Virus record (IMG/VR): IMGVR_UViG_3300032190_000013 | Location: 1-37,763 of that record | Source of the DNA: a virus | DNA length: 37,763 nt | Direction: 5' to 3' (one strand) | Part shown: piece after piece, positions 1 through 37,763 of the stretch | How positions within the stretch are numbered: position 1 is the stretch's first letter | How the letters are laid out: each line of letters begins with the position of its first letter | The notes under the pieces: model-generated | The model's database searches: none | What the model saw: the letters and a program-made list of their open reading frames with translations, nothing else | What the model was told of the DNA's origin: nothing | Made by a program: the position numbers and the translations under genes

Positions 1-55
1 TTCCAGTATCAGTTCATGTTTTTTGTTACGATAGATTCCTTTTAAATTGTTAAAG
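1..55. repeat. 55-nt terminal direct repeat, identical to 37709..37763 (circular-assembly overlap)
   Basis: Bases 1-55 (ttccagtatc...aattgttaaag) recur exactly as the last 55 bases. Joining them restores a continuous minus-strand ORF in frame. Confidence 0.9.
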
Positions 56-168
56 ACGGTTGCGTGTTCAATTTCCGCTATCTTTTCTGCTAATTTTGGA
101 TAAATCTTGTTCCAATCATAAGGGATCCCGTTGCAATCAGTGAGCCCAACGAAAATCTCTAATCTCAT
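1..168 (-). CDS. N-terminal 56 codons of a 107-aa hypothetical protein (cassette gene A); gene crosses the circular junction and continues at 37708..37553
   Basis: ATG at 168-166 with GGAG 8 nt upstream. Translation is MRLEIFVGLTDCNGIPYDWNKIYPKLAEKIAEIEHATVFNNLKGIYRNKKHELILE. 168 nt + 156 nt = 324 nt, in frame after removing the 55-nt overlap. Confidence 0.7.
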   Translation of the reverse strand, partial: MRLEIFVGLTDCNGIPYDWNKIYPKLAEKIAEIEHATVFNNLKGIYRNKKHELILE

Positions 169-180
169 TTAGGACGCTCC
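155..180. repeat. Inverted repeat IR1, left copy (partner 36979..37004, 24/26 identical)
   Basis: Reverse complement of 155-180 is ggagcgtcctaaatgagattagagat; 36979-37004 is ggagcgtctaaaatgagattagagat. It covers the SD, the ATG and codons 1-5 of gene A. Confidence 0.85.
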
Positions 181-221
181 TTTCATTTACTTTTCAATGA
201 CCTCCCCTTGGCTACGACAAC

Positions 222-251
222 ATTATAGCATAATGCTTTACAATTTGTCAA
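222..251 (-). promoter_or_regulatory. Near-consensus sigma70-type promoter P1 driving cassette gene A
   Basis: Minus strand reads TTGACA (251-246), 18 nt, TGcTATAAT (-10 at 227-222). It lies directly downstream of a terminator and about 55 nt upstream of the gene A ATG. Confidence 0.6.
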
Positions 252-292
252 GCGCTTTGGTTGGAACATTTTTAACACAAAGCAGTTTTTAA

Positions 293-320
293 TTAAAAAA
301 GCCCCATCTCGGGGCTTTTG
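293..320 (-). terminator. Rho-independent terminator after the membrane-protein gene (bidirectional shape)
   Basis: Stem GCCCC/GGGGC (301-305/311-315) with loop atctc. An A6 run at 295-300 gives a U-run on the minus strand; TTTT at 316-319 on the plus strand. Confidence 0.7.
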
Positions 321-375
321 TATAGTTTAGCCACTATATGTAGTATATCACAACTTGTTTCAAATTCAAAAACTC

Positions 376-639: not shown

Positions 640-656
640 TTGCAAAACCTCCCTAC

Positions 657-1088: not shown

Positions 1089-1090
1089 GC

Positions 1091-1542: not shown

Positions 1543-1729
1543 TCTTTATCCCCCTTTTCAACTCTTCCTCCTTTACTTCAACTATTTCAATTCTTTTTAG
1601 TTTATGCCTATGTCTAAACCGAAATTTTTCCAGTGCTTGCTCTCTACTTCGTGCCGCTAGCTGATACTCTAACCGCTTTCCCACTGATTTTTGTCGTGCT
1701 ACTATCGTAAAGTTTTTCAACTCGATCAT
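1511..1729 (-). CDS. Small basic hypothetical protein
   Basis: 72-aa ORF with RBS aaaggggactaaaggATG, in the same operon orientation. Confidence 0.5.
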   Translation of the reverse strand: MIELKNFTIVARQKSVGKRLEYQLAARSREQALEKFRFRHRHKLKRIEIVEVKEEELKRGIKNDKERNRKSA

Positions 1730-1746
1730 CCTTTAGTCCCCTTTCC

Positions 1747-2049
1747 CTAGATTTTTGCTTCTTCTAAAAGTTTTTCCTCAAGCCTTTCGAGAATCTGAAC
1801 CGGATCTTCCTTGAGAATTGTGTAACTGAATGTCTTCCACTCCTGGGCGGCAATACGAACAGGATTAGCCTTTATAGCAGTTCCTTGATACTTTCCATCT
1901 AACTTGAAATAGATCCTTTGGAGTATGTTGTCTTTCTCGGTCACAACCTCATAACTGTCATTGCCTTTGTCCAGAACAACGTAAATTTTCTCGGTTCGTC
2001 CGTAAGCTTTATGAACTCCAGAAAAGAAGATAATGAACATTATCATCAC
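1747..2049 (-). CDS. Hypothetical protein with hydrophobic N-terminus
   Basis: 100-aa ORF. Its start overlaps the upstream stop (ATGA at 2046-2049). N-terminus is MMIMFIIFFSGVHKA. Confidence 0.55.
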   Translation of the reverse strand: MMIMFIIFFSGVHKAYGRTEKIYVVLDKGNDSYEVVTEKDNILQRIYFKLDGKYQGTAIKANPVRIAAQEWKTFSYTILKEDPVQILERLEEKLLEEAKI

Positions 2050-2597
2050 CTCATTTCTAGGGCGCCGTTTTTAATTCGGTTTCTAAAATCCTCGAAGTTC
2101 CCATCTACCCATTCGTAGTCATTTTCACTAAGCCAATCTATTAGTTTTTCTCTGGTGTTCTCATCCGTTGGATATACAATTATCTTTTCCTCTTCTTTCT
2201 TTCCGTCGCGATACTCTTTAAGGAAGCCGGGATCTATTAACTTTTCCGCCTCTTCATTCGATATGCAGCCTTTCATAAAGTCTTCTTGCGCTTTGTTTAC
2301 CAATCTTTCGAGGTAACTATGTCTCGGCCTTATCATCTTTACCGTTCGATTGGAAACGAGCCCCCTAACACGAACAAGAACCAACTCTCCCAACACGAAA
2401 ACATATTCTTTGGCAAACATGTGTGGGAACTTATCAAGAACTGTAATCGTGACTATCCCGTCTTCGCGCTTCATATCAGAGACCAAACCATTCTTCTCTA
2501 ATGCTGTATAGAACCTTCCGAACAACATTTTGGTTAACCCTCCTTTGAAAACCAATTCTGTGCCTTCTGGTATCAGGAGTTTGCCTTCTTTCATCAT
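2046..2597 (-). CDS. Hypothetical early protein (183 aa)
   Basis: ORF with RBS gaggaggaatagccaATG. I recognise no family. Confidence 0.6.
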   Translation of the reverse strand: MMKEGKLLIPEGTELVFKGGLTKMLFGRFYTALEKNGLVSDMKREDGIVTITVLDKFPHMFAKEYVFVLGELVLVRVRGLVSNRTVKMIRPRHSYLERLVNKAQEDFMKGCISNEEAEKLIDPGFLKEYRDGKKEEEKIIVYPTDENTREKLIDWLSENDYEWVDGNFEDFRNRIKNGALEMR

Positions 2598-2610
2598 TGG
2601 CTATTCCTCC

Positions 2611-3003
2611 TCAAAACGGTACATCGTCATTTTCGGGTACTTCCGGTGGGATGTATTCGGCTTCAGGCTCTTCAGTGTTTTCGGTCTCAGGGGTCTGCAA
2701 TTTTCCCCTGAGCCTGAAAACCTTACTCGCCACAACGTTCACGAACGTTTTTTCATCTCTGTGGTCGATTTCGAGTCGACCTATCACTAGAACAAGATCT
2801 CCTTTCTGGATCTCGTCTATCCAGGGTTGGTCGCCCCAGGCGATAACCCTGAACCAGTCTGTGCCGCGCTCATTCCCGTCGCGGTCTTTTCCCCTTGAAA
2901 CGGCAAGAGAAAGGGTTCTATATGTCTTTCCATTGGGTGTGTATCTCAGTTCGGGCTCACGTCCTATGTGTCCCATGATGTAGATTTTGTTTAAATACGG
3001 CAT
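2611..3003 (-). CDS. ssb: Single-stranded DNA-binding protein
   Basis: OB-fold-like N-terminus (NKIYIMGHIGREPELRYTPNGK...WFRVIAWG) and an acidic C-terminal tail ending DDVPF (canonical SSB tip D-D-D-I-P-F). Confidence 0.9.
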   Translation of the reverse strand: MPYLNKIYIMGHIGREPELRYTPNGKTYRTLSLAVSRGKDRDGNERGTDWFRVIAWGDQPWIDEIQKGDLVLVIGRLEIDHRDEKTFVNVVASKVFRLRGKLQTPETENTEEPEAEYIPPEVPENDDVPF

Positions 3004-3005
3004 GT

Positions 3006-3551
3006 CTAATCCCCCTTCTTCGTGGAAGGCAAAGCGTTCGCAAGTCCACCTATAAGCTCGCGCAGCTGTTGAGCCTGCGGATTCAGTTCCGGAATTCCTG
3101 AAAGCTTCGCTTTTCTTTCCCTATCGCTGAAGGAGTTATAAATCTTAATAAACTGCGCCCGAATAACGGGTTTCTGATCAACTGTCATCATTTGGAGACT
3201 TTCCCAACCTATCGCTTTGAGCGCTTCTCTTGCTTTCCAGTCATCAAGTTCTGGAGGGCACCAATACCCATCCGCACTATGCAGATGATCCATAACCTTG
3301 TTCCATGCTTCTTCAGCTGTCTCATTAGGAAGAGAATCAATCGCCGCGGATCTAATATCAGCAACTTTCGGAGGGTAATGAGAGGTCTTGACAACGTACT
3401 CAATTGCGCGCTCAAAAGCGTCGTCATCCAGGTCTTTCAACATTCTGTACCACAGCTTGGAAGTCTCTGGATCCTCTACAACATCCGACATTTCCGGGAA
3501 GAATTTCGACAAGGCATACATTCCCGCCGTAAAGGCTTTCTTGCTAAGCAT
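3006..3551 (-). CDS. Putative replicative helicase loader (SPP1 G39P-like)
   Basis: N-terminal pattern FTAGMYALSKFFPEM...WYRMLKDLDDDAFERAIEYVVKTSHYPPKVADI resembles the G39P loader family. It sits between the replication initiator and ssb. ATG 3551 has an aggaaggtga RBS. Confidence 0.5.
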   Translation of the reverse strand: MLSKKAFTAGMYALSKFFPEMSDVVEDPETSKLWYRMLKDLDDDAFERAIEYVVKTSHYPPKVADIRSAAIDSLPNETAEEAWNKVMDHLHSADGYWCPPELDDWKAREALKAIGWESLQMMTVDQKPVIRAQFIKIYNSFSDRERKAKLSGIPELNPQAQQLRELIGGLANALPSTKKGD

Positions 3552-4407
3552 CGTCATCACCTTCCTCAAGAACTGCTCTAAGCCCTGCGTATGCGTGCCT
3601 TTTTCCCTTATTGTTGTAACGCCCTTCAGAAACCTTCAAGAAGTTGGTGGGCTTCATTAGCCAGTCGAAATCTGCAATCCAATCCTTCTTCCGGCCAGCG
3701 AGAAAATCGGAGTCTTCCACTTTCCTGAAGAAGTCTTCCCAGAATGATAGATCTGGATAATCCTTCCATCTCGCTGAAACATATCTCTTCCGGGTTTTAC
3801 TCCACTCTGAAACAGGTTTGATCCTGGGAAGCGAAGGGCATAGTTCGAGGAATAATTCTCTGATTTGCTGGAAAGGCACTTTCTTAGCAGGGTTTGACTG
3901 TCTCACTGACGACTGCCCGTTAGGGCAGTTATTATTATATATATCTAGTTCTTTATCTAGGTCTCTATCTAGTTCTTTATCTTTGGTCTCATTTTCCGTC
4001 TCACTTACCGTCTCACCAACCGTCTCAGGAACCGTCTCACTTATCGTCTCATTTAGTGTCTCACTTTCCGTCTCATTTTCACTCTCATTTTTCGATGTAT
4101 AATGAGACGGTTTAAGTTTTGGCCCTAAGTCATATACAGCGAATTCTTTTTTTGAAGTTCCAGCAACAAAGTTAATAATCCCGAACTGTTGAAGCCTGTT
4201 TCGACAACGGTAAAAAGTTGCCCGTGTCAAACAAGCTTTGTTCGCAATATCCGAAGCCGCAAGTTTTACCTCACCCGAATCGCCAAAACTTAGCCAATAG
4301 TCATTCAAAGAATCAACTATGGCAAAGAATAAGGCGATATCTGACGGTGTCAAAGGTAAATATCTCGCGAGCTTCCAGAATCTGCGAACTATGTCCAGGT
4401 ACGTCAT
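3544..4407 (-). CDS. Replication initiator / replisome organiser (winged-helix N-terminus, acidic repeat linker, conserved C-terminal domain)
   Basis: 287-aa ORF. C-terminal WIADFDWLMKPTNFLKVSEGRYNN is typical of phage replication-organiser proteins. The central (E-T-x-x)n tract is encoded by 12-bp tandem repeats. Confidence 0.65.
   Translation of the reverse strand: MTYLDIVRRFWKLARYLPLTPSDIALFFAIVDSLNDYWLSFGDSGEVKLAASDIANKACLTRATFYRCRNRLQQFGIINFVAGTSKKEFAVYDLGPKLKPSHYTSKNESENETESETLNETISETVPETVGETVSETENETKDKELDRDLDKELDIYNNNCPNGQSSVRQSNPAKKVPFQQIRELFLELCPSLPRIKPVSEWSKTRKRYVSARWKDYPDLSFWEDFFRKVEDSDFLAGRKKDWIADFDWLMKPTNFLKVSEGRYNNKGKRHAYAGLRAVLEEGDDDA
3985..4092. repeat. Nine tandem 12-bp repeats (consensus cGTCTCAnnnnn): iteron-like array inside the replication gene
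   Basis: ggtctcattttc cgtctcacttac cgtctcaccaac cgtctcaggaac cgtctcacttat cgtctcatttag tgtctcactttc cgtctcattttc actctcattttt, read directly from the sequence. Confidence 0.85.
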
Positions 4408-4491: not shown

Positions 4492-5376
4492 TTATGTCAA
4501 GGGGGCAGGTGACTCCCTTCTAAGGGCTTTGTTTGGGAAAGGCCCTTCTTTGGGTTCTTCTTTTCCCTCTTCAACCGGGGTCTCTCCAACTTCAACAACC
4601 TCAAATTCATTCTCGTTCGGAAAGTCAAGGATGTCGTCCGTTTCGATTTGGGTACGGATCGTCTCGTCCTGTGCAAGACCCCTTTGCGTTTCGATGCTTA
4701 GCGGCAGGAGTTTGCAGAGCTGCTTGAGGACCGTCTTTTTCGCCATATCATCGTAGAAGTTGTTCCAAGGAGAGTAAGGAGAATTTGCAGATGGGCTGAG
4801 CTTCCTATATTTCTCGATCTCAGGGATAGACATAACCTTGAATGCATAACCACCGTCTTTGAATATAGCAACAGCGTAGTAAAGACGAACTTTGCCGCGA
4901 TCGCCGTCAAGGAAAGGCTTATGCCTCAAATATGGGTTGGTTCCATATTCAAATTCGAAGTAGTCCTTTTCATAAACTGCTTCAGCAAAAACCGCTTTGA
5001 TTTCCCCGGAACGCCTAACAAGGTCTAAGGTTCCTTTGTAGCCAATTTCAAACTGGACCTCCATTTTTCCATGATTTTTCCTAGGAATTAACCAGGCATG
5101 GCCTAAGGGAGTGTTTGGTTCTAACCCAAGTTGAGCGCTAGTCATGAGAGCGGCCACAAAACTTTGAGGGGAGCACTCTTGAAGCTCTGGATTCATCCTT
5201 AAAGCTGTTAGCGCTATCCTGGCGATTCTTTCGGCACTCATTCCGTTAGGAAGAGCTCTTTGGATCTGAGATTTCATCTTAGGGTTGTTTAATAGGTCCA
5301 TAATGGTATTGCTTTTCTTTCCGCTCCCTTTTTTAGCTAACTGATTTTTCACTTTTTCGGTTGTCGCCATATTCAT
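4492..5376 (-). CDS. recT: RecT-family single-strand annealing recombinase
   Basis: MKSQIQRALPNGMSAERIARIALTALRMNPELQECSPQSFVAALMTSAQLGLEPNTPLGHAWLIPR matches the RecT N-terminal core. ATGA overlap with the upstream exonuclease gene. Confidence 0.9.
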   Translation of the reverse strand: MNMATTEKVKNQLAKKGSGKKSNTIMDLLNNPKMKSQIQRALPNGMSAERIARIALTALRMNPELQECSPQSFVAALMTSAQLGLEPNTPLGHAWLIPRKNHGKMEVQFEIGYKGTLDLVRRSGEIKAVFAEAVYEKDYFEFEYGTNPYLRHKPFLDGDRGKVRLYYAVAIFKDGGYAFKVMSIPEIEKYRKLSPSANSPYSPWNNFYDDMAKKTVLKQLCKLLPLSIETQRGLAQDETIRTQIETDDILDFPNENEFEVVEVGETPVEEGKEEPKEGPFPNKALRRESPAPLT

Positions 5377-6476
5377 TTCGCCTCCTTGATACTAAACTTT
5401 CTATACTGAGTTTCTTTCGAGTATTCCTCATACAGATCAGGCCGCTCGCTCTTGAGTTTCTTGCTGTCGAGTCTTTTCTGAACGATGGTTTTCCAAACAA
5501 CTTGATATCTGGATGTTCTTCCGGTTTCGAACTCTCCGAGCATTTCCTTGATCTGGTTTTCCCTTAGCCTGATCTCTTCTTCCAGGTCTTTCTTTTGTGT
5601 TTTCAGTTCGTTTAGTTCCTCGATGAGGGTTTCTGCTGTTGGAGGGAGTTGGATCTCTTCAGGGCGGGATTCCGGATAAAGCTGGTTGAGAAGTTTTTCA
5701 GCGTCTTCAGAACCATCAATTTCAGGCGGGATATCCTTTTCAACGTGGTTGAGCCAGAAGTCTTTCTCGCCGTCAATGATCATTTTGCATAGCTCTTCAT
5801 CTTTCTCTACTCGCTTGATCAGCAGCATTTCGTTTCCTACTAAGGCAGCTATATAACCCCAAGATCTGTTTGTAACTATAAAGTAATGCTGAAGCTGGAT
5901 GATGTATTCTTGAGGTATTTCTTCGCCTTCCCATTCCTTCTTCATGTATGGAGACACAAATTTCAGCTCAAGAACACCAAACTCTTTGGTTCTGGGATCG
6001 TAAATATCTCCATCGATATTTCCGACCATCCACGGGTATTCGTTGTGCCTGTAAAACTGGTTGTTGTGGATCAGTTCGTAATCTGAGAGTCTTTTTTTGA
6101 CCATCTGGAATATGGCTTCTTCAACTTCTATTCCTATCTGCATTCTCTCTGTGGGTTCGGGTTGCTCAACCTTTCCGGTTTTCTCCAGGAAGAGCCTGAA
6201 TCTGGACTTGTATCTGGAAATTCCCAGGGCAGCAGCTGCGTCGCTGCCGCCAATGCCTTTTTGCCTTTCTTTAAGCCATTCTTCACGTGTCATTCTTGCT
6301 CGTGATAAAGTCTTTACCTGCTCCATACTGTCGCCCTCTTTCCTTGGAGTTTTGCTGTTGTGATATAATCCCAATAGGAGTGTTTTAGTACTGCTGAAAG
6401 TCTGAGTTTCTTGGTTCTCCTGGTCGCGCAGGGGAACCTTTTTCTTTCCCTCTTTGTTCTCCACTTCATTCCTCAT
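5373..6476 (-). CDS. YqaJ-like (lambda Exo-fold) recombination exonuclease with C-terminal coiled-coil extension
   Basis: The GIGGSDAAAALGISRYKS motif is typical of YqaJ exonucleases, and the gene is paired with recT. An alternative start at ATG 6326 (RBS aagaggg) would remove a 50-aa low-complexity N-terminus. Confidence 0.85.
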   Translation of the reverse strand: MRNEVENKEGKKKVPLRDQENQETQTFSSTKTLLLGLYHNSKTPRKEGDSMEQVKTLSRARMTREEWLKERQKGIGGSDAAAALGISRYKSRFRLFLEKTGKVEQPEPTERMQIGIEVEEAIFQMVKKRLSDYELIHNNQFYRHNEYPWMVGNIDGDIYDPRTKEFGVLELKFVSPYMKKEWEGEEIPQEYIIQLQHYFIVTNRSWGYIAALVGNEMLLIKRVEKDEELCKMIIDGEKDFWLNHVEKDIPPEIDGSEDAEKLLNQLYPESRPEEIQLPPTAETLIEELNELKTQKKDLEEEIRLRENQIKEMLGEFETGRTSRYQVVWKTIVQKRLDSKKLKSERPDLYEEYSKETQYRKFSIKEAK

Positions 6477-8660: not shown

Positions 8661-9323
8661 ATGCTAGTGGGTGATTTGGTGCAATCATTAGCAGAAAGGC
8701 TTAAACTCTTGAGAGAGTCAAAAGGGCTTTCTTTAAGGAAATTAGCTGAAAAAGTAAATATCCATTTCAGTACGCTTGGTAGTTATGAGCAGGGGCGAAG
8801 AAATCCTGATATCGAAACCCTGAAAATGCTTGCGGAATTCTACAATGTATCAGTCGACTATCTCCTTGGTCTCGTAGACGACCCACAGGGGCATCTTAAA
8901 GGTGAAGTCGAACTCCCAAAAATGGACAAGCAACAGAAAATGGTCCCGCTTCTTGGGAAAGTTTCCGCAGGGCAGGGAGTTCCTGCTGAAGAAGATATAA
9001 TTGGATACATCTCTTTAGAACCTGGAGAACAAGCAGATTTTGCGCTAAAGGTCAAAGGGCACAGCATGCATCCACTTCTCTATGACGGAGATATTGTATT
9101 TGTTCGGAAGCAGCCCATTGCTAGAAACGGACAGATAGCGGTAGTTCGGATCAATGGTGAAGAAGCCGTTATCAAGAAGTTTTTCAGGCTTAGAGATGGG
9201 GTAAAATTGGAATCTGAAAACCCCGAATATAAACCTATATTTATTAAAAAAGATAAGTGGGACGCTGAGTGTGAAGTAATAGGGGTGGTTGTTAGTTTCA
9301 AAAGGAAGTTCCCGAATCTGTAG
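8661..9323 (+). CDS. CI/LexA-like repressor: XRE HTH plus S24 autopeptidase domain
   Basis: N-terminal LKLLRESKGLSLRKLAEKVNIHFSTLGSYEQGRRNP. C-terminal VKGHSMHPLLYDGDIVFVRK...VIKKF (Ser/Lys dyad context). Confidence 0.9.
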   Translation: MLVGDLVQSLAERLKLLRESKGLSLRKLAEKVNIHFSTLGSYEQGRRNPDIETLKMLAEFYNVSVDYLLGLVDDPQGHLKGEVELPKMDKQQKMVPLLGKVSAGQGVPAEEDIIGYISLEPGEQADFALKVKGHSMHPLLYDGDIVFVRKQPIARNGQIAVVRINGEEAVIKKFFRLRDGVKLESENPEYKPIFIKKDKWDAECEVIGVVVSFKRKFPNL

Positions 9324-9347
9324 ATAAGTTCCAAGGGGGGATAAAAA

Positions 9348-9886
9348 GTGAGGAAAACCTCTTTCTTTTTTGTCTTCTTAGTGTTAATGTTGAGCCTTCA
9401 AGTATTTTCCAGTACGTATGCTGTAACAACAGATAATCAAATAGTTTTATTGAAAGATGACGGAACCTGGGAAAAAGTAACGTTGGAAGAAACATACGGG
9501 GATTGAAAGATGTTGATATCGGAACTCCATTTATTCTTGGTGACATTGCGATAACTATAAAACAGGTACTGAGATATAAAGAGGCTCTGATATTAGACGT
9601 ATTCATTGTTAATAATGGAGCCGAAATTGTAGATGCTGATACGTTGTCTTATGGTTTCGACATTCGGGATTCTGAAGGGTACAATTACTCCTCCGGTTAC
9701 ATTCCGGGAATCCCGGAAGAATACTACTATAAGTCTCTGGGTGGCAAAATACGCCCGCGTGGTTATATCAGAGGTTATATCTTCTTCAAAATTCCAGAAG
9801 AGGCCGAGATTCGGGAATTGTACGTCTCTTATCTGTTCGATACCGCTTACGTAGACATCTCCAAGATAGAGCCGAAGGGGCTGTGA
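9348..9886 (+). pseudogene. Secreted DUF4352-like protein split by a frameshift (signal-peptide ORF 9348-9506 plus domain ORF 9461/9503-9886)
   Basis: GTG 9348 (RBS aagggggg) encodes VRKTSFFFVFLVLMLSLQVFSSTYA|VTT..., stopping at 9504-9506. The -1 frame is open from 9461 and encodes a beta-rich domain with no start or signal peptide of its own. Homopolymers a5 (9472-9476) and g4 (9498-9501) lie in the overlap. Confidence 0.5.
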
Positions 9887-9931
9887 TAGCGAGGTTTTAG
9901 TAGTTCTATTTAAAAAGGGAGTGCTGTGCAA

Positions 9932-9961
9932 TTGATAGAAGATGTACGCTAGTGGTATAAT
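9932..9961 (+). promoter_or_regulatory. Promoter of the hicB/hicA-like pair
   Basis: TTGATA (9932-9937), 18 nt, TGgTATAAT (-10 at 9956-9961), about 24 nt upstream of ATG 9985. Confidence 0.55.
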
Positions 9962-9984
9962 ACTAAATTAGAGAGGTGAGATTT

Positions 9985-10329
9985 ATGAAAATCGGCTACG
10001 CTAGGAAAATCACCAAGGAAACAGGAGTACTTATTTACAAGGACAACGGGTTGTATTATTTTTATATTTATGGATTAGGGATTTTAATTTATGGAAAAAC
10101 CCTAGATGATTTGACTTCAAACACTAAGAAAATATTAGATGATTTGATTAAAGGAATCAAATCGGGTGAAATCAAGATTGAATCTCTTATCAAGGATGAA
10201 CCACTTAAAAATAGAGTGCTGTTTAAAATTTCACTTTTCCTTTCTTCTTTACTTCCTGATTCTTCAAAGAAAAATCAAATCAATAAAATGAAACCTTACA
10301 TAGACAAATTAACTCCGCATTATGCCTAA
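9985..10329 (+). CDS. hicB: HicB-like antitoxin candidate (no recognisable DNA-binding domain)
   Basis: RBS gagaggtgag. VLIYKDNGLYYFYIYGLGILIYGKTLDDLTSNTKKILDDLIKGIK fits the HicB N-terminal fold pattern. 8-nt overlap with the downstream gene. Confidence 0.45.
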   Translation: MKIGYARKITKETGVLIYKDNGLYYFYIYGLGILIYGKTLDDLTSNTKKILDDLIKGIKSGEIKIESLIKDEPLKNRVLFKISLFLSSLLPDSSKKNQINKMKPYIDKLTPHYA

Positions 10330-10615
10330 GAAATATCCGCCTCTATCACTAAGAGAATTCAGAGAAATCTTAGAAACCTTCAACATAGTTAGAGAAAGGA
10401 CTAAGGGCGGGCATGTTATTCTGGTCATTGAAATTGAAGGAAAAGAAAGAACCATAGTCTATCAAACTCATATAGACCCCGTCCCACTAGAAGTGCTTAA
10501 AAATACAATACAGGATCTTGAGGTAAGCGTAAGAGAATTCTACTCTCGCTCCAAATCGGCTGCTAAGAAAAAGAATGTCAGGTATAGGAAAAAAGCAGAG
10601 TTAGATGAAGCCTAA
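10322..10615 (+). CDS. hicA: HicA-like mRNA-interferase toxin candidate with basic C-terminal tail
   Basis: LSLREFREILETFNIVRERTKGGHVILVIE...THIDPVPLEVLKNTIQDLEVSVREF matches the HicA/YcfA pattern (G-[GS]-H, then H-x4-V-x5-L-x2-I). The tail is SKSAAKKKNVRYRKKAE. Confidence 0.55.
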   Translation: MPKKYPPLSLREFREILETFNIVRERTKGGHVILVIEIEGKERTIVYQTHIDPVPLEVLKNTIQDLEVSVREFYSRSKSAAKKKNVRYRKKAELDEA

Positions 10616-10659
10616 AAAAAGCTCTTTTGCTAAATTTAACTGAAAACATAAAATCAGTA

Positions 10660-10690
10660 AAGTGCTGTTTAGCACTTTTTTCTTTTACCC
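10660..10690 (+). terminator. Rho-independent terminator after the hicA-like gene
   Basis: aagtgct-gttt-agcactt followed by tttttctttt. Confidence 0.7.
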
Positions 10691-10694
10691 CATA

Positions 10695-10703
10695 TGGTAT
10701 AAT
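10695..10703 (+). promoter_or_regulatory. Possible extended -10 promoter element for the integrase
   Basis: TGgTATAAT at 10695-10703, with no good -35. Confidence 0.35.
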
Positions 10704-10766
10704 TAATTATACTTCTTTACATCATCTTCCTCTTTTCATGTTTCAATTTCTTTGGGAGGGATCTGC

Positions 10767-12227
10767 GTGGGTAAGAAACGCGCCGCCATATATGCCAGGT
10801 ATTCTTCTGACAATCAACAGGAACTTTCTATTGAAGGTCAACTCGATCAAATCCTTGAATTTTGCCAGAAGCACGGGTATGAGGTTGTAAAACAATACGC
10901 AGATAGAGGAGTATCCGCTTTCCTGATAGAAAAACGTCACGACTTTCTCAAACTCATCGAAGACGCAATGGAGGCAAAATTTGATTATGTCGTAGTCTGG
11001 AGCTACGACAGGTTTGCAAGATCGAGGCTGGACGCCAGGCGATATAAAGAACTCCTCAAAGAATACGGTATCAAAGTAATTTCAATTACAGAGCCATATA
11101 TAGATGGTCCTGAGGGAATAATTGTCGAAGGCATGACCGAAACCATAGCTGAATACTTCGTAGCCAAAATGGCCAGAGATTCAATGCGGGGAATGATAAC
11201 CAAAGCAAAGCGTGGGGCTCTTGTAGGAGGATATGCTCCGTTTGGGTATAGGAAGATCAAAATTGGTGACGACTGGAAGCTCATACCGGATGAGAAGGAA
11301 GCCAAAGCAATACAAAAGATCTTCCAAATGCGCGCTGAAGGGGTCACATATTCTGAGATCGCCAGATATTTGAACAACCTGGGATTTAAGACTCGAAGAG
11401 GAGAAAAATTCACTAATGCTAGTGTTGAATGGATGTTGAGAAACCCGAAATATAAGGGTGAGTATGTATTCAACAACCGAAAAAAGAAAGGGAAATTCAA
11501 TCCTTTTGATGAAGTGATCCGGGTTCATATTCCTGAAATTGCGATAGTTTCACCAGAGCTTTGGAAAAAGGTTCAGAAAGTATCCGGGATCCAGAAAAAG
11601 CCTAAGGTTAAATATTTGCTGAGAGGATTTATGCGTTGCGGAGATTGCGGATATCCTTTGACTGGTAGCGCGTATGGCGGAAAAAGGAACCATGGAGGAT
11701 ATTATACCTGCTTGAATTGTAAGAGAAAGCATAACAGGATCCACAAAGTAGGCCGAGATAAAATAGAGGGAAAGGTTCTTAACTTCCTGCATCAAAAGCT
11801 CCGGGATCTTGACCCCGAACAATTGGCAGCGGAAATAAACCTTTCGATAAGACAAAAAATCGATAAAGGAAGAACAGAAGCTTTGAGATCTAAAATTAGG
11901 GAAGTTGAGCACGCTATGAGCAATATAACCAAAGCAATTGAAACCGGAGTATATTCTCAAACGCTACTTAATCGATTATCCGAATTAGAACGTGAACGCG
12001 AAAAATTGACTACTGAATTAACGAAAGCCAGAATGCAAGCGCTAAAGCTTAAGGAAGTAAAACCCGAAGAAGTTGCTATGTTAATGGAAAATTTCAAATC
12101 AGCTTTCTCAAATTACGAGACTCGGTATGCTGTTGTTCATGATCTCATAGATTACATAGTCATCGACTGGCGCAAAAGAGAGGCAAAAATTGCCAGCGCA
12201 GTAGGCAAAATTGCATTGCCTCTATGA
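10767..12227 (+). CDS. int: Large serine recombinase (integrase)
   Basis: GTG 10767 with GGGAGGG RBS. Has a resolvase-type N-terminus (AAIYARYSSDNQ), a recombinase domain, a zinc ribbon (CGDCGYPLTG...YYTCLNCKRK) and a C-terminal coiled coil. Confidence 0.9.
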   Translation: MGKKRAAIYARYSSDNQQELSIEGQLDQILEFCQKHGYEVVKQYADRGVSAFLIEKRHDFLKLIEDAMEAKFDYVVVWSYDRFARSRLDARRYKELLKEYGIKVISITEPYIDGPEGIIVEGMTETIAEYFVAKMARDSMRGMITKAKRGALVGGYAPFGYRKIKIGDDWKLIPDEKEAKAIQKIFQMRAEGVTYSEIARYLNNLGFKTRRGEKFTNASVEWMLRNPKYKGEYVFNNRKKKGKFNPFDEVIRVHIPEIAIVSPELWKKVQKVSGIQKKPKVKYLLRGFMRCGDCGYPLTGSAYGGKRNHGGYYTCLNCKRKHNRIHKVGRDKIEGKVLNFLHQKLRDLDPEQLAAEINLSIRQKIDKGRTEALRSKIREVEHAMSNITKAIETGVYSQTLLNRLSELEREREKLTTELTKARMQALKLKEVKPEEVAMLMENFKSAFSNYETRYAVVHDLIDYIVIDWRKREAKIASAVGKIALPL

Positions 12228-35125: not shown

Positions 35126-36364
35126 TTATGCATCTCTTCTGGTGTAAAACTCTGGGATAGAACCGTTACAATAACCCCATGTAGCAAGTGCCAGAGCTAT
35201 CACACAGTCATCGTGATAACCATCGGGAGCATTCATCTTCAAATTGCCTGACGGGCTTATCTGGTATTCGAATATCTCGAGTTCGTTGATAAGATCTGGG
35301 ATATCATCGTAGTGAATTTTTTCCTGCTCAATTGCAAGCGAAAGGTTGTTTATAAGCTGTCTCTTCGTACTCGGGTTAAATTTGAACCCTTCAACGTCCA
35401 GACCTTCGTATCTCAGATCCTCAAAAATTGGGTCGCCAACTCCTGTGCTGTCAATGATTATCTTTCCAGGATAATCGCGGTAAACACTTTTGATCCTTTC
35501 CTTCTGCAAATTCCAGTCGATTTGGTTGAACCTATCGAAATAGACCAAATTACCGTCTCTATCCAGCACAGCAATAACCGTGAAATCCATATATTTCGCA
35601 AGATCGACCCCAATAAAAAAAGACTCTCCAGGTCGTGCACTGCGAAGAGTCTTTCTTATTAGCTTTCGCACACCACGGAAGACACCGCCTGTATCATCAA
35701 GAAATTCAGCCAGATATTCCTGCCGAAAAGCCCGTTCAGGTAATGTCCTTTTTGCTTCTTCTATTTCCTCAGGGCTTATGTACGGATTGTCAGAAGTAGG
35801 ATGTTGCCAGGATTGATACTCTGGAAATTTTGGATCTTGGCCCCTGGTCCACAGCCTAAAGAACCAGTTTTTACCCTTTGGAGTGCTAATAATAATTGCT
35901 CTACCGTGTTTATCCGAGAGCGTGGGCCTAAGTTGCTCATTCCACACAGATTCCTTTATTCTTGCAGCCTCATCTATGATGAGAAGATCCAGCCCTTCAC
36001 CCACGAGAGAATCTGGGTTGTCTGCTGATTTTCCGACAATTTCAGTTCCAAAATTGGTAATGATCCTCATTTCGGATTTAGAATTCACACAACGGCCTTC
36101 AGCTTTCCATAGGAAGTGCCGAGGCCTTACGTACCTATAAACCTCTCTAAAAACCTTTTGAGCCAATTCATATGTCGGAGCGACCACCCAAACCATCTTG
36201 TTTTTCATAAAAACGTATGGGAGGATCTCAATAGCTGAATACAAAGATTTCCCCCATCTCCTGCCATTGCAGAGAATTTTGAATCTCGCATCCGACATAA
36301 ACGCTTCATATTGGCCTGGGTGAGGCTTGAAACCTATATCTTTCAAGAATTGCTCTTTGTTCAT
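35126..36364 (-). CDS. terL: Terminase large subunit
   Basis: Walker A-like CNGRRWGKS, Walker B LLIIDEAARI and a C-terminal nuclease-type region ending DGYHDDCVIALALA. Confidence 0.9.
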   Translation of the reverse strand: MNKEQFLKDIGFKPHPGQYEAFMSDARFKILCNGRRWGKSLYSAIEILPYVFMKNKMVWVVAPTYELAQKVFREVYRYVRPRHFLWKAEGRCVNSKSEMRIITNFGTEIVGKSADNPDSLVGEGLDLLIIDEAARIKESVWNEQLRPTLSDKHGRAIIISTPKGKNWFFRLWTRGQDPKFPEYQSWQHPTSDNPYISPEEIEEAKRTLPERAFRQEYLAEFLDDTGGVFRGVRKLIRKTLRSARPGESFFIGVDLAKYMDFTVIAVLDRDGNLVYFDRFNQIDWNLQKERIKSVYRDYPGKIIIDSTGVGDPIFEDLRYEGLDVEGFKFNPSTKRQLINNLSLAIEQEKIHYDDIPDLINELEIFEYQISPSGNLKMNAPDGYHDDCVIALALATWGYCNGSIPEFYTRRDA

Positions 36365-36786
36365 TTTTCCAGTCCCCAGCGGTCTGCAATGGCTTTCAGA
36401 AGATCTTCAGCAGTGGTCGCGCCGGCTCCTGAGTTCTTGAGTTTTAGATTTATACCTTTAAGAAGCCTGTCGTAAATCTGGAGTTTTGCCTGTTTTGGGA
36501 GTTCCGGATCTCTAAACCACTTGAAAAGCTCTTCGTTCATTTCATCCAGCTTTTGAAGGTCATCCGGGATAGTTTTTTGAATATGTTCCTGAACAATTGT
36601 TTTAGAGATCTCAGCTCGTTCTTCACGAACCGTCTTTAGGAAGTTAGCAATTGCTGTTTTACTGATGCTTATTCCCTTTTCTTCTTTCAACGCTTTCGAT
36701 ATTTTGCTGGAAGACATACCCTCGGCATATTTTTTGAGGACGTAGTCTTCCAGTTCATATTGCTCGATTTTACTAGGCCTGGGCAT
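36361..36786 (-). CDS. terS: Terminase small subunit (HTH)
   Basis: ATG 36786 with RBS gaggtggaagcATG. HTH is GMSSSKISKALKEEKGISISKTAIANFLK. ATGA overlap with terL. Confidence 0.8.
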   Translation of the reverse strand: MPRPSKIEQYELEDYVLKKYAEGMSSSKISKALKEEKGISISKTAIANFLKTVREERAEISKTIVQEHIQKTIPDDLQKLDEMNEELFKWFRDPELPKQAKLQIYDRLLKGINLKLKNSGAGATTAEDLLKAIADRWGLEK

Positions 36787-36810
36787 GCTTCCACCTCGCT
36801 TTCGTTCAGA

Positions 36811-36845
36811 TATGGAAAGGTATGGCAAGGTATTTAACTTGTCAA
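36811..36845 (-). promoter_or_regulatory. Late-promoter-like region: TTGACA plus 10-bp tandem repeats upstream of terS
   Basis: Minus strand reads TTGACA (36845-36840) agttaa ATACCTTgCC ATACCTTtCC ATA. There is no good -10 at 17 nt (TACCTT). Confidence 0.35.
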
Positions 36846-36872
36846 CGCAAAAACAAAAGGCCCCGAAGGGCC
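36846..36872 (-). terminator. Terminator hairpin T3 (UUCG tetraloop) upstream of terS
   Basis: Minus strand reads ggccc-uucg-gggcc followed by ttttgttttt. Confidence 0.6.
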
Positions 36873-36884
36873 TGTGAATTTTAA

Positions 36885-36911
36885 TAAAAAAGCCCGGAGC
36901 AGCCACTCCGG
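36885..36911 (-). terminator. Terminator hairpin T2
   Basis: Minus strand reads ccggag-tggctg-ctccgg followed by gcttttttatt. Confidence 0.6.
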
Positions 36912-36952
36912 TTAAAAGAATCCAAAAGGATTATATTGCATAATTTGTCAAC

Positions 36953-36974
36953 AAAAAACCCGCCTTTCGGCGGG
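36953..36974 (-). terminator. Terminator hairpin T1 (GAAA tetraloop) ending the two-gene cassette
   Basis: Minus strand reads cccgcc-gaaa-ggcggg followed by ttttttg. Confidence 0.7.
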
Positions 36975-36978
36975 CGAA

Positions 36979-37004
36979 GGAGCGTCTAAAATGAGATTAG
37001 AGAT
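36979..37004. repeat. Inverted repeat IR1, right copy (partner 155..180)
   Basis: ggagcgtctaaaatgagattagagat on the plus strand carries an SD plus ATG (36991). This opens a 26-codon plus-strand ORF, MRLEILLFYLFYSIFYIAEKFTNSCF (36991-37071), antisense to the 3' end of gene B. Confidence 0.85.
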
Positions 37005-37008
37005 ACTT

Positions 37009-37506
37009 TTATTCTACCTCTTCTATAGCATTTTTTACATAGCTGAAAAATTCACCAACAGTTGCTTTTAATTCTGGACGTTCCAAATCTCTCTTTAACA
37101 AGAAGAAAGTTTCTGATATATCATCTTTGAGTTTTACGCTTTCTGTCCAATATACTCTTACTCTGACAAGAATGTCATCCTTAGATTCTTTCAAGATGAT
37201 CCCAAAGTCAACTCTCTTACCTTGATACTTAGTACATAACAAAATCGGTACTGATTCAGTAACCACTTTTGCTAGTGTCATTGACGGCTTTACAACACCA
37301 ATTATTTTGAAACTATCTAGGAAAGACCTCAGGTAAGGAATCAGTTTATAGTCAATATCCTCCCATGTCAAGTCTCTTGAAAGATACTCTTCAAGTGCAT
37401 TTCTTATAAGCTCGGTAGTCGATGAACCCTTTCTTTTTCTGAGGATCCAACCAATTTTTTCTTGAGTTTTCTCATCGATCCTCACATTTACCATCTTTGT
37501 CTTCAT
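37009..37506 (-). CDS. Ribbon-helix-helix (CopG/Arc-like) domain protein with an unknown ~120-aa C-terminal domain (cassette gene B)
   Basis: ATG 37506 with RBS ggaggtggaggc. N-terminal VNVRIDEKTQEKIGWILRKRKGSSTTELIRNALEEYL fits the RHH strand-helix-helix pattern. Confidence 0.65.
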   Translation of the reverse strand: MKTKMVNVRIDEKTQEKIGWILRKRKGSSTTELIRNALEEYLSRDLTWEDIDYKLIPYLRSFLDSFKIIGVVKPSMTLAKVVTESVPILLCTKYQGKRVDFGIILKESKDDILVRVRVYWTESVKLKDDISETFFLLKRDLERPELKATVGEFFSYVKNAIEEVE

Positions 37507-37552
37507 GCCTCCACCTCCCTCAAAAAAAAAAGCAGCCAAGGGGAGGCAAGTG

Positions 37553-37763
37553 TTATATCTTCAAAAGCTCGAATTCAGTCAGATTTTTAACGATTAGAAC
37601 ACTTTCTTGATTTGTCTCCTTCAAGAACCACCTGAAAACCTCTTTGAGCTTTTCTAATTTTTCTTCAGCTGTTTCATCTGGGGTCATTATCAAAAACATC
37701 ACCGAATCTTCCAGTATCAGTTCATGTTTTTTGTTACGATAGATTCCTTTTAAATTGTTAAAG
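37553..37763 (-). CDS. C-terminal part of cassette gene A (continuation of 1..168 across the junction; 37709-37763 duplicates 1-55)
   Basis: The frame continues ...DSVMFLIMTPDETAEEKLEKLKEVFRWFLKETNQESVLIVKNLTEFELLKI and stops with TAA at 37555-37553. Confidence 0.7.
   Translation of the reverse strand, partial: FNNLKGIYRNKKHELILEDSVMFLIMTPDETAEEKLEKLKEVFRWFLKETNQESVLIVKNLTEFELLKI
37709..37763. repeat. 55-nt terminal direct repeat, identical to 1..55
   Basis: Exact identity, read directly from the sequence. Confidence 0.9.

Follow-up and report, generated by a model that had tools for sequence, protein, structure and literature searches.

We analyzed a window of 37,763 nucleotides, the whole stretch of DNA presented here. 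Its two ends carry a 55-bp exact direct repeat, bases 37709-37763 being a duplicate of 1-55, and because of this repeat the window is a circular 37,708-bp assembly with a 55-bp overlap. The genome is that of a temperate siphovirus-like phage. Reading through the junction joins 168..1 to 37708..37553 into a single 324-nt ORF encoding 107 amino acids plus a stop codon (gene A), which is followed after a 46-nt spacer by a second gene on the same strand (gene B; Table 1). An earlier note on this DNA had placed an insulated two-gene cassette across the circular junction, encoding proteins of 107 and 165 aa, with a consensus promoter of its own and a terminator on either side, between late-activator/membrane genes and terS. 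Each of these elements was recovered: the terminal overlap and the ORF joined through it, both gene models, the promoter, the two terminators described below, and neighbors comprising a Sigma70_r4 protein, a small membrane-like ORF, terS and terL.

Table 1. Features of the two-gene cassette and its surroundings, in window coordinates
Feature	Position	Strand	Remarks
Sigma70_r4 protein	657-1094		Neighboring gene
Small membrane-like ORF	376-645		Neighboring gene
Upstream intrinsic terminator	291..322	-	Left edge of the cassette; hairpin and T run; conserved in L018
Flanking direct repeat, left copy GGGGCTTTTTTAATTAAAA	287..305	-	Corresponds to the 3' half of the upstream terminator
Candidate operator, palindrome GCTTGACAA-A-TTGTAAAGC	235..253	-	Overlaps the -35 hexamer of P1
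Promoter P1, TTGACA-18-TGcTATAAT	222..251	-	Score 12/12 with extended -10 TG
RNA element X (AGCCAAGGGGAGG)	201..213	-	About 9 nt from the -10 box; 5' arm of the predicted helix; contains an SD-like sequence
Predicted leader mini-ORF, TTG AAA AGT AAA TGA	183..197	-	Within the conserved motif GGTCWTTGA
Gene A, 5' part	1..168	-	Codons 1-56; continues at 37708
Gene A, 3' part	37553..37708	-	Codons 57-107 and stop; SAM-lyase-family / DUF3574 product
RNA element Y (CCTCCCCTTGGCT)	37534..37546	-	6 nt past the gene A stop; 3' arm of the predicted helix; anti-SD of gene B
RNA element Z, Shine-Dalgarno of gene B GAGGGAGG	37514..37521	-	7 nt upstream of the ATG; complementary to Y
Gene B	37506..37009	-	165 aa and stop; RHH at ~5-45, alpha/beta domain at ~48-165
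Terminator T1	36948..36978	-	3' of gene B; stem 36975..36958
Second hairpin-terminator (36911..36894) and right repeat copy CGGGCTTTTTTATTAAAA (36896..36879)	36879..36911	-	Right edge of the indel
terS	36361-36786		Neighboring gene
terL	35126-36364		Neighboring gene

The promoter P1 matches the sigma-70 consensus at all 12 positions (TTGACA-18-TATAAT) and adds an extended -10 TG; equivalent extended -10 promoters were found in lineages L001, L009, L011 and L013. In four lineages (the window, L001, L011 and L013) the -35 hexamer is overlaid by a palindrome placed identically with respect to the promoter, and we infer that the gene B protein would bind it; a genome-wide search for more copies of this palindrome returned none that was convincing. 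On the left side, the terminator hairpin AAAAGCCCC-GAGAT-GGGGCTTTT at 297-319 is followed on the minus strand by TTTTTTAATT. Part of the T run is taken up in the stem, which is why the terminator scanner reports this terminator only on the plus strand. On the right side, the T1 stem consists of seven pairs, six of them G-C, followed by TTTTTTGTTG, and a terminator 3' of gene B is present in every lineage.

Comparison with a close relative points to an accessory origin of the whole unit. In L018 (UViG_2645727976_000001), whose sigma, terS and terL genes are 82%, 89% and 84% identical to those of the window, the upstream terminator is joined directly to the terS leader and exactly the 1.1-kb unit is missing, with boundaries set by blastn against this relative. 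The GC content of gene A (35.2%), gene B (34.9%) and the cassette (35%) compares with 43.6% for the genome, and the cassette is among the lowest of its 1-kb windows. The A-B pair was found in six lineages with flanking genes that are often unrelated, and five lineages besides the window repeat the arrangement promoter-A-B-terminator, which is more than chance would give. A and B always occur together there while the genes around them differ, such that similarity across the cassette is discordant with that of its flanks. In five lineages the cassette sits directly upstream of terS, and these terS genes are unrelated between lineages; L020 keeps the A-B pair with no terS nearby, and L023 carries a distant gene A homolog alone, with its own promoter and without gene B.

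Altogether, these sequence comparisons support a mobile, moron-type, insulated accessory unit. The moron architecture proposed in the earlier note is thus upheld by the dedicated promoter and terminators, the 1.1-kb indel, the low GC and the unrelated flanks, and the co-occurrence of A and B that it had suggested looking for was found, as neighbors, in the six lineages. The cassette is not a terS partner or packaging component, since L018 does without it and L020 has no terS in its vicinity. Lambdoid morons likewise have their own promoter and terminators, deviant GC, and are absent at the same site in a relative, and expression from the prophage is their usual hallmark. The present cassette differs from them in comprising two genes with predicted internal RNA regulation, and in that the beneficiary of a counter-defense role would be the phage and not the lysogen. 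Blastn of the cassette region against GenBank phages gave no match, nor did tblastn of gene A against the same phages, even at E 1, and scans of viral contigs with P0008 and P0011 found nothing. A word-indexed protein search returned only three relatives of gene A and four of gene B, and an exhaustive HMM search only 12 relatives of gene A (E<=0.001) among 1.84 billion representatives.

We further investigated the product of gene A. Its AlphaFold2 model (pLDDT 90.9, pTM 0.83) has the topology beta-alpha-beta-beta-alpha-beta-beta, and we confidently assign the predicted fold to the ferredoxin-like alpha-beta sandwiches of the GlnB/PII-like superfamily. The best Foldseek matches were the phage SAM lyase structures 6ZM9 (E 3.3e-6, TMq 0.70) and 6ZNB, followed by CutA and PII trimers. 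In Pfam, the single sequence reaches the cutoff of one curated family only, DUF3574, and does so at the borderline (25.3 bits vs a cutoff of 25), while S-AdoMet_lyase (PF23780) scores 20.9 bits, below its 28-bit cutoff. At the level of the family, DUF3574 matches 11/11 members (best E 1.7e-38) and S-AdoMet_lyase 7/11 (best E 1.1e-7), the family profile matches the SAM lyase Svi3-3 (6ZM9) at E 2.2e-7, and hhalign gives 96.3% probability (E 1.7e-9) for the same pair. Used alone, gene A gave only chance matches to PDB sequences with phmmer, a search of PDB sequences with a Svi3-3 fragment found only Svi3-3 itself, and NCBIfam and PADLOC gave nothing meaningful for either protein of the cassette.

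The alignment equates G44, Y46, E56, S58 and Q90-E91-S92 of gene A with G56, Y58, E69, S71 and Q104-E105-S106 of Svi3-3, and G44, Y46, E56, Q90 and E91 are invariant in all 11 family members. PMC7877911 reports Gly56, Tyr58, Glu69, Gln104 and Glu105 of Svi3-3 as positions conserved in active SAM lyases and required for catalysis or for binding SAM; Ser50 of that enzyme has no conserved counterpart in the gene A family. By these sequence criteria, the gene A protein is a member of the DUF3574 / phage SAM-lyase superfamily, with its putative ligand-binding residues conserved. The earlier note had recognized neither protein as a known family and had suggested a structural search; for gene A this search, headed by 6ZM9 and in agreement with the profiles, shows that the family is recognizable.

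Both gene A and Svi3-3 (6ZM9/6ZMG/6ZNB; PF23780) are phage-encoded and have a GlnB/PII-type ferredoxin-like fold in which the Gly, Tyr, Glu and Gln-Glu(-Ser) positions are conserved. Identity between the two is only about 19-25%, Svi3-3 is longer (~146 vs 107 aa), and the C-terminal strands that make its "velcro" trimer contacts (PMC7877911) are missing from gene A. No partner regulator is described for Svi3-3, while gene A is accompanied by gene B. Typical members of DUF3574 (PF12098) differ in being bacterial and longer, often with signal peptides or three tandem domains. The gene A product is probably a homotrimer with active sites at the subunit interfaces, and most likely cleaves SAM to methylthioadenosine (MTA) and homoserine lactone. 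Its substrate is nevertheless uncertain because SAM-AMP lyases, which leave SAM uncut, are members of this superfamily too (PMC12255297).

The product of gene B is a ribbon-helix-helix (RHH) protein carrying a second folded domain without a counterpart among known structures. With RHH_1 it reaches 19.5 bits, slightly short of the 20.5 cutoff, and this profile matches 5/7 family members (best E 7.4e-6). Against the PDB, the family profile finds RHH structures (2KEL, ParG, ORF56 and CopG), with matches to 2KEL, 1P94, 2K9I and 6IYA over residues 3-45, and gene B also matches phrog_876, which is annotated as a transcriptional repressor. The RHH segment resembles the antitoxin-type families DUF6290 and PSK_trans_fac and the addiction-module antidote 5CEG. 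In the predicted model, helices span residues 12-24 and 30-44, and the N-terminal strand is of low confidence in the monomer. The C-terminal domain of ~120 residues is predicted to be alpha/beta and well folded (pLDDT about 90), and Foldseek of the model against the PDB gave nothing better than E 0.67; Bet v 1/START-like and other scattered matches were too weak to rely on. Of what had been claimed for gene B, the N-terminal RHH is now backed by profile and PDB matches, and the C-terminal domain is still without a match to a PDB fold. Gene B thus resembles other RHH regulators (type II antitoxins, CopG/Arc/Mnt and MetJ) in its N-terminal domain and palindromic candidate operator, and differs from them by the folded 120-residue domain. 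MetJ is an RHH repressor that uses SAM as its co-repressor.

The cassette mRNA also carries three short elements that we call X, Y and Z. The Shine-Dalgarno sequence of gene B (Z) is occluded in the predicted fold by a local hairpin with Y, and Y can alternatively pair with X at the other end of gene A. Contiguous Watson-Crick runs of 11-16 nt connect the 5' UTR to the A-B spacer in five lineages, and in a longest-complement test these runs were matched by 0 to 27 of 20,000 shuffles. When the complete ~430-nt mRNA is folded, the minimum free energy structure of each of the five lineages contains the X:Y helix, whose duplex energy is -30 to -35 kcal/mol; the competing local hairpin, which hides the gene B SD, has -15 to -18 kcal/mol. 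RNAalifold recovers the X:Y helix as well. Both sides have changed at 9/16 pairs, giving a covariation score of 0.494 vs 0.229 in shuffles (reached by 0/500; slid controls scored far lower). In L013 all three elements are changed, to GGAAGG/CCTTCC/GGAAGG. A predicted leader mini-ORF of 2-7 codons is present in all five lineages. The helix was not found in L020, which keeps the A-B pair, and is therefore not essential to the pair. Searched against Rfam with a permissive threshold, the sequence matched no SAM riboswitch, and the matches that came up were all sub-threshold and driven by the terminators. We considered whether the U-rich tract after Y could make the X:Y helix a long-range terminator and rejected this, the T run being present in only 2-3/5 lineages. 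What the comparisons describe is a predicted long-range mRNA switch that is conserved, covarying, absent from Rfam and previously undescribed.

Long-range pairings that gate translation are known from MS2, in the coat-replicase "Min Jou" interaction, and from hok mRNA, which folds back between its 5' and 3' ends. The predicted switch is like these in that a distant complement competes with local structure at a ribosome-binding site and that the pairing spans a whole ORF; it differs in sequence and system, and in that its 5' arm is an SD-like decoy beside a leader mini-ORF.

We propose that the cassette is a self-limiting counter-defense unit made of a SAM-lyase-like enzyme, an RHH repressor and an RNA layer, a reading to which we give a probability of roughly 0.55. 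Within it we infer what reaction gene A catalyzes and on which substrate, that gene B acts as a repressor, and in which direction and on what trigger the RNA switch works. The strong, host-recognized P1 would drive a burst of enzyme, which would bind SAM at its subunit interfaces and cleave it to MTA and homoserine lactone. Destruction of this host cofactor is a known route to disarming bacteria, and here it would starve SAM-dependent host defenses, Type I/III restriction and BREX among them. Overproduction of SAM lyases is toxic (PMC7877911), and gene B would later shut off the burst by repressing P1 through the palindrome. The RNA layer may set the A:B ratio: translation of gene B would be blocked while Y pairs locally with Z and freed when Y pairs with the decoy X at the 5' end of the mRNA. 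As X would be where ribosomes bind to translate the leader mini-ORF, their presence on the leader could choose between the two pairings. The 16-20-bp X:Y duplex could in addition serve RNase III as a cleavage site or shield the 5' end.

A functional parallel is the SAMase of T3 (gp0.3, anti-restriction and anti-BREX), which shares the role proposed here, an early removal of SAM driven from a host promoter. The two families have no similarity detectable by hhalign, where the match was not significant. The T3 gene is bracketed by the RNase III sites R0.3 and R0.5, and gene A by the two arms of one helix; T3 is virulent with the gene at the leading genome end, while the phage studied here is temperate and pairs the enzyme with a dedicated RHH partner. 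The recurrence of the cassette at the same site upstream of unrelated terS genes suggests selection for genome position. By analogy with lambda-type packaging, a cassette at this site would be on the end of the DNA that goes last into the capsid and first into the cell, and the early entry of the terS-side end is a possible reason for the position. Against the counter-defense reading, counter-defense genes classically lie in the early region and not between a late regulator and terS.

Several other readings were weighed against this evidence. The pair could form a toxin-antitoxin-like or abortive-infection module of the prophage, in which A is a toxin that stops growth by depleting SAM and B is an RHH antitoxin that neutralizes A by binding it with the C-terminal domain and autoregulates P1, such that losing B under stress or superinfection would free A and exclude other phages. 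That A and B stay paired in every case, even away from a phage late-region context, speaks for this, as do the likeness of the gene B RHH to DUF6290, PSK_trans_fac and the 5CEG antidote, the toxicity of SAM lyases at high expression (PMC7877911), a strong constitutive-type promoter with a palindromic candidate operator, and an elaborate control over how much B is translated per A, which would fit a need for fixed stoichiometry. Neither protein, however, convincingly matches any PADLOC defense model, and gene A falls in no toxin family of Pfam, NCBIfam or PADLOC. The toxin would come first with a 46-nt spacer, whereas the antitoxin usually comes first and the genes overlap; the large, well-folded C-terminal domain of gene B is unlike the typically disordered tails of antitoxins; a distant A homolog occurs without B in L023; and SAM-lyase family members of known biology work for the phage, against host defense. 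We find this module less economical than a regulated counter-defense enzyme and consider it unlikely. A hybrid of the two is more doubtful still: X, Y and Z would form a reciprocal RNA switch that picks either the enzyme or its RHH partner for translation, and the C-terminal domain of gene B would sense SAM or its breakdown products or cap the enzyme. If so, the cassette would be a two-state module of a new type, and the prophage would hold a metabolic "kill switch" used for counter-defense on entry and for SAM-depleting abortive defense in the lysogen.

The activity of gene A could also be directed elsewhere, as a SAM-AMP lyase acting as an anti-CRISPR against the messenger of type III-B CRISPR-CorA, with B still its regulator. 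SAM-AMP lyases belong to the same PII-like trimeric superfamily and share with gene A their conserved, catalytic Glu and Gln, a phage-encoded example, the candidate AcrIIIB4, has been characterized (PMC12255297), and tolerance of the gene by a temperate phage would be accounted for if the substrate were not toxic. Yet the T-loop of gene A, Y46-RNKKHELIL-E56, has no Cys between Y46 and E56 and hence no counterpart to the T-loop Cys reported to be strictly conserved in these enzymes (C66 of the C. botulinum enzyme; PMC12255297). Gene A is moreover detectably similar in sequence to Svi3-3, and the equivalents of Y58 and E105 are invariant as in SAM lyases; according to PMC12255297, only the Glu and Gln are structurally common to a SAM lyase and a SAM-AMP lyase. 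Neither CorA nor a type III system can be seen in the surroundings. We therefore hold this substrate to be improbable. In five lineages gene A lies between the arms of an 11-16-bp inverted repeat, and gene conversion can also make the arms of such a repeat covary, so X and Y might act in DNA, as the ends of an invertible or excisable segment. We rejected this inverton as highly implausible: gene A has the same orientation in 17/17 contigs recovered, no invertase lies in or beside the cassette, and X falls exactly within the 5' UTR and Y just past the stop codon. The SD/anti-SD core common to X, Y and Z, together with the joint change of all three in L013, makes sense only for RNA. We see equally little prospect for an ordinary late or packaging function, for instance as a terS-associated DNA-binding factor. 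The position directly upstream of terS in five lineages would suit it, but a close relative with terS/terL 84-89% identical lacks the cassette, the adjoining terS genes are unrelated between lineages, L020 has none nearby, and the fold predicted for gene A is one of enzymes or ligand-binding proteins.

To our knowledge, phage SAM lyases have been found almost only in virulent T3-like phages and a few environmental clones, and we know of no previous work addressing how a temperate phage could carry so toxic an enzyme. The cassette would provide a compact, portable enzyme-plus-regulator unit that is directly testable. Should the proposed reason for its position be true, placement on the first-entering end would be a general design rule for counter-defense genes in temperate phages. 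Gene B reveals a new folded domain joined to an RHH regulator, and gene A gives a functional lead for the uncharacterized DUF3574. It counts against SAM cleavage that some bacterial members of that family, which are secreted proteins or lipoproteins or have tandem domains, would be unlikely to act on SAM. The relatives P0012 and P0013 carry three tandem domains in one chain, which hints at a trimeric unit.

The two-gene unit at the circular junction is a discrete mobile cassette that joins a member of the SAM-lyase family whose ligand site is intact (gene A) to a ribbon-helix-helix (RHH) protein (gene B), and in its mRNA a covarying helix competes with occlusion of the Shine-Dalgarno (SD) sequence of B. 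Since the window's end repeats its start exactly over 55 bp, in direct orientation, we treat the genome as circularly assembled, with a length of 37,708 bp. The SD of gene B, GAGGGAGG, lies 7 nt 5' of the ATG. Re-derivation of the ORFs, promoter, terminators and junction from the sequence agreed throughout with the coordinates and the cassette anatomy in the earlier note. The surrounding genome belongs to a temperate tailed phage. Its terL is only 37% identical to the closest GenBank phage match, and the cassette region has no nucleotide match among GenBank phages.

Features of the cassette and of the phage genome that carries it
Feature	Position	Strand	Remarks
Gene A	168..1 + 37708..37553	minus	107-codon ORF, across the junction
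Gene B	37506..37009	minus	165-codon ORF
Promoter P1	251..222	minus	perfect TTGACA-18-TATAAT with extended -10 TG
Upstream terminator	297-319	minus	G+C-rich hairpin and T run
Downstream terminator (T1)	36975..36958	minus	strong
Two further terminator-like hairpins	36911..36894, 36873..36858	minus	ahead of terS
A-B cassette	junction	minus	between membrane-like ORF and terS
Small membrane-like ORF	376-645	minus	89 aa; between sigma-like gene and cassette
Sigma70 region-4 protein	657-1094	minus	
SSB	2611-3003	minus	
Replication initiator	3544-4407	minus	
RecT-like annealing protein	4492-5376	minus	
RecE-like exonuclease	5373-6476	minus	
HTH/S24 repressor	8661-9323	plus	
Large serine recombinase	10752-12227	plus	
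terL	35126-36364	minus	
terS	36361-36786	minus	

The A-B pair is present in six lineages, including that of the window, and in five of them the order is Sigma70_r4 gene, A, B, terS. An HNH gene precedes terS in one lineage (locus L011, between B and terS). Terminase small subunits differ in type between lineages, and the cassette therefore adjoins non-homologous packaging modules. Flanking genes do not track cassette similarity: in L001 and L007 the sigma-like and terS genes are unrelated to those of the window although A and B are the most similar, whereas in L014 identity is 61% for terS and 73% for terL but no more than 34-37% for A and B. A close relative, L018 (IMGVR_UViG_2645727976_000001), has sigma, terS and terL genes 82%, 89% and 84% identical to those of the window and no cassette; there, a conserved upstream promoter/terminator segment passes straight into the terS leader. 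By blastn, the two genomes differ here by a 1.1-kb indel (window 295..1 + 37708..36899), whose edges are an 18-19-nt direct repeat, GGGCTTTTTTA(A)TTAAAA, from the 3' halves of two terminators. The GC content of the cassette is 35%, against 43.6% for the genome. The comparative evidence, the indel and the composition together show that the cassette is an exchangeable accessory module whose two genes are functionally linked; the indel, the deviating GC and the discordant flanks also bear out the earlier reading of the unit as a moron.

Lineages carrying the A-B pair, with identity to the window, helix strands and promoter palindrome of a representative locus
Lineage	Loci	A, B identity	X	Y	Palindrome over -35	Remarks
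Window			AGCCAAGGGGAGG	CCTCCCCTTGGCT	GCTTGACAA-A-TTGTAAAGC	
2	L001-L006, L012	60%, 47%	AGTCAGGAGGGAGG (L001)	CCTCCCTCCTGACT (L001)	TTTACAA-T-TTGTAAA (L001)	
3	L007-L010	72%, 51%	GGAGTTGGGAGGGAGG (L009)	CCTCCCTCCCACTCC (L009)		
4	L011, L015, L017	31%, 33%	AACAGCGGGGAGG (L011)	CCTCCCCGCTGTT (L011)	TGACA-AAA-TGTCA (L011)	one contig in a Thermotogaceae MAG bin
5	L013, L014, L016	37%, 34%	GAAGTCAACTGGAAGG (L013)	CCTTCCAGTTGACTTC (L013)	GTTTGAC-ATATC-GTCAAAC (L013)	
6	L020-L022	39%, 31%				neighbour a convergent PLD-like gene; no terS

Neither protein had been recognised as a known family in the earlier note, a view that does not hold. Gene A matches Pfam DUF3574 at 25.3 bits (curated threshold 25) and S-AdoMet_lyase at 20.9 bits, below the threshold of 28; its better score is thus with DUF3574, which includes secreted and triple-domain bacterial proteins. 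In PHROGs it weakly matches the T3 SAMase family, whose methyltransferase label there is wrong, as it is in the T3 record. The family is tiny, with three sequences in a word-indexed protein search; at E<=0.001, 1.84 billion representatives yield twelve. An AlphaFold2 model built from three sequences is confident (pLDDT 90.9, pTM 0.83) and predicts a beta-alpha-beta-beta-alpha-beta-beta, ferredoxin-like fold. Its top Foldseek match in the PDB is the characterised phage SAM lyase Svi3-3 (6ZM9, E 3.3e-6, TM 0.70), followed by 6ZNB, with CutA and PII trimers ranking lower; its matches among viral models are numerous small, uncharacterised phage proteins and, as a weak match, an annotated SAM hydrolase. 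A profile of 11 family members matches Svi3-3 at E 2.2e-7, and hhalign gives 96.3% probability.

The alignment pairs G44, Y46, E56, S58 and Q90-E91-S92 of A with G56, Y58, E69, S71 and Q104-E105-S106 of Svi3-3, and G44, Y46, E56, Q90 and E91 are invariant across the gene A family. Only Gly56, Glu69 and Gln104 (Svi3-3 numbering) are strictly conserved in active SAMases; Tyr58 and Glu105 close around the ligand, and almost no activity is left in E69Q (PMC7877911). On this evidence gene A is a new, divergent member of an already known enzyme superfamily, the SAM lyases, with its ligand site intact. It differs from Svi3-3 in being shorter and in not conserving Ser50, and the family has no detectable similarity to T3 SAMase itself. 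Among distant bacterial DUF3574 relatives (P0012, P0013, P0017), three tandem domains per chain occur; P0013 has a signal peptide and a PEP-CTERM-like anchor and P0017 a lipoprotein-like leader. Three fused domains outside the cytoplasm, in effect a covalent pseudo-trimer, speak against SAM as the substrate of every DUF3574 protein.

Gene B joins an unassigned domain to a DNA-binding domain of known type. Residues about 3-45 form an RHH domain: RHH_1 is found in five of the seven family members, and the profile matches the RHH structures 2KEL, ParG, ORF56 and CopG as well as the repressor family phrog_876. Residues about 48-165 have a confident predicted fold (pLDDT about 85-93); the model includes a sheet of five strands and a long helix at the C-terminus, with no significant fold match in the PDB (best E 0.67) or sequence match in PDB and Pfam profile comparisons. 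Protein search gave only four family sequences, and more were recovered from the loci. At P1, the -35 hexamer lies within a palindrome. All four lineages with upstream sequence available have one at the equivalent promoter position, and no other convincing copy of the P1 palindrome was found genome-wide. We infer that B binds this candidate operator.

The five phage-type lineages share three RNA elements absent from the earlier note. X starts 7-12 nt past the -10 box, has an SD-like GGAGG at its end and lies directly 5' of a conserved motif, GGTCWTTGA, which opens a TTG mini-ORF of 2-7 codons. Y, the reverse complement of X, begins 6-9 nt past the A stop codon; Z, the SD of gene B, complements the CCTCC core of Y. 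Outside the SD core X and Y differ in all five lineages and complementarity is always kept. The longest Watson-Crick runs (11-16 nt) were matched by 0-27 of 20,000 shuffles per lineage, and the helix is present in every minimum-free-energy fold of the whole ~430-nt predicted mRNA (5/5); RNAalifold also finds it from a MAFFT alignment. In an alignment anchored at the helix ends, and so somewhat fitted, 88.6% of cells pair, 9 of 16 pairs have changed on both sides, and covariation scores 0.494, shuffles giving 0.229 +/- 0.049 (0/500 reach 0.494). Sliding the partner by 1-3 columns lowers pairing to 38-62%. The A-B spacer folded alone forms a Y:Z hairpin of -15 to -18 kcal/mol that buries the ribosome-binding site of B, while the X:Y duplex reaches -30 to -35 kcal/mol; in L013 the core is altered jointly in X, Y and Z (GGAAGG, CCTTCC, GGAAGG). 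These energies and this joint change point to mutually exclusive pairings that gate translation of B. With extensions X:Y spans 16-20 bp and could be an RNase III substrate, or could protect the mRNA 5' end; the T3 SAMase gene likewise has RNase III sites on its flanks. The helix is absent from the L020 lineage, and no Rfam family matches the cassette RNA.

In the proposed counter-defence mechanism, host RNA polymerase would fire P1 on DNA entry, and A would reduce SAM or a SAM-derived signal, blunting SAM-dependent defences; T3 SAMase is documented to act against Type I restriction and BREX. B would build up as fast as the X/Y/Z switch allows and then shut off P1, making the enzyme tolerable in the lysogen. 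The conserved site just 5' of terS may, by analogy with lambda-type packaging, place the cassette on the first-injected genome end.

A toxin-antitoxin or abortive-infection module, with A and B as its linked partners, is an unlikely alternative to this counter-defence reading; a more distant A homologue (P0011, locus L023) stands solo with its own consensus promoter and without B. Less probable still is that A is a SAM-AMP-specific anti-CRISPR. SAM-AMP lyases have the fold, the Glu and the Gln in common with A, yet do not cut SAM (PMC12255297); their T-loop Cys, reported as strictly conserved, is absent from gene A. We consider it very improbable that the complementary X and Y form a DNA-level inverton. 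A packaging role, for all the proximity to terS, is equally remote, and membership of the packaging machinery was rejected on the comparative evidence (cassette-less L018, unrelated flanks, terS-less lineage 6). The literature searched describes neither the pairing of such an enzyme with an RHH protein, nor the mobility of the A-B pair between phages, nor the cassette's long-range RNA switch.

Several minor observations concern the cassette itself. A second tiny ORF (window 183-168, ATG AAA GGA GCG TCC TAA) separates the TTG mini-ORF from gene A, its stop adjoining or overlapping the first codon of A. Equivalent sites exist in L001 and L009, and an in-frame fusion to A in L009 accounts for the annotated 114-aa form; the arrangement looks like a relay of translational coupling from X to gene A. 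Just past T1, TTGACAAATTATGCAATATAAT (36928-36949, minus strand) resembles a copy of P1 (TTGACAAATTGTAAAGCATTATGCTATAAT) lacking 8 nt, with a spacer of only 10 nt and the second terminator hairpin next; it may be the relic of a dead promoter, or a very short transcript may begin here.

Other observations concern the neighbourhood. terS and HNH loci of cassette-bearing lineages lie at L011 4188-4490 and 4809-5309 and at L008 835-1080, and in some lineages terS is of another type, with a zinc-ribbon-like CxxC motif at the N-terminus. Beside the A-B pair of L020, a convergent 688-aa protein with two PLDc_2 domains (1697-3763, minus strand) is possibly a nuclease, and these surroundings may be a defence or counter-defence neighbourhood. 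The 89-aa membrane-like ORF is a second indel (window 372-663, minus strand), missing from L018, where the sigma stop and the conserved promoter segment are 17 nt apart. That segment (291-369) is 86% identical in L018, directly 5' of the terS leader, and holds a promoter-like site, TTGAAT-16-TGtgATATACT (369..342, minus strand), with terminator 319..297 about 25 nt downstream; a similar TGATATACT-plus-terminator segment is present in L013, L014 and L016. The arrangement looks like a brief leader RNA ended by a promoter-proximal terminator before the late genes, as at lambda PR'-tR', and would suggest late-gene control by antitermination, in which case late transcripts could read through the cassette. 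Just 5' of terS (36786-36873, minus strand), a -35-like TTGACA reads CTGGCA in L018 (3900-4001) and a conserved promoter is therefore improbable here; transcription of terS likely starts farther upstream. Finally, the lowest GC of the genome (34-36% in 1-kb windows) is found at about 9300-10900, between the repressor and the serine recombinase, where small plus-strand ORFs (9976-10329 and 10322-10615) may mark another accessory or moron region.
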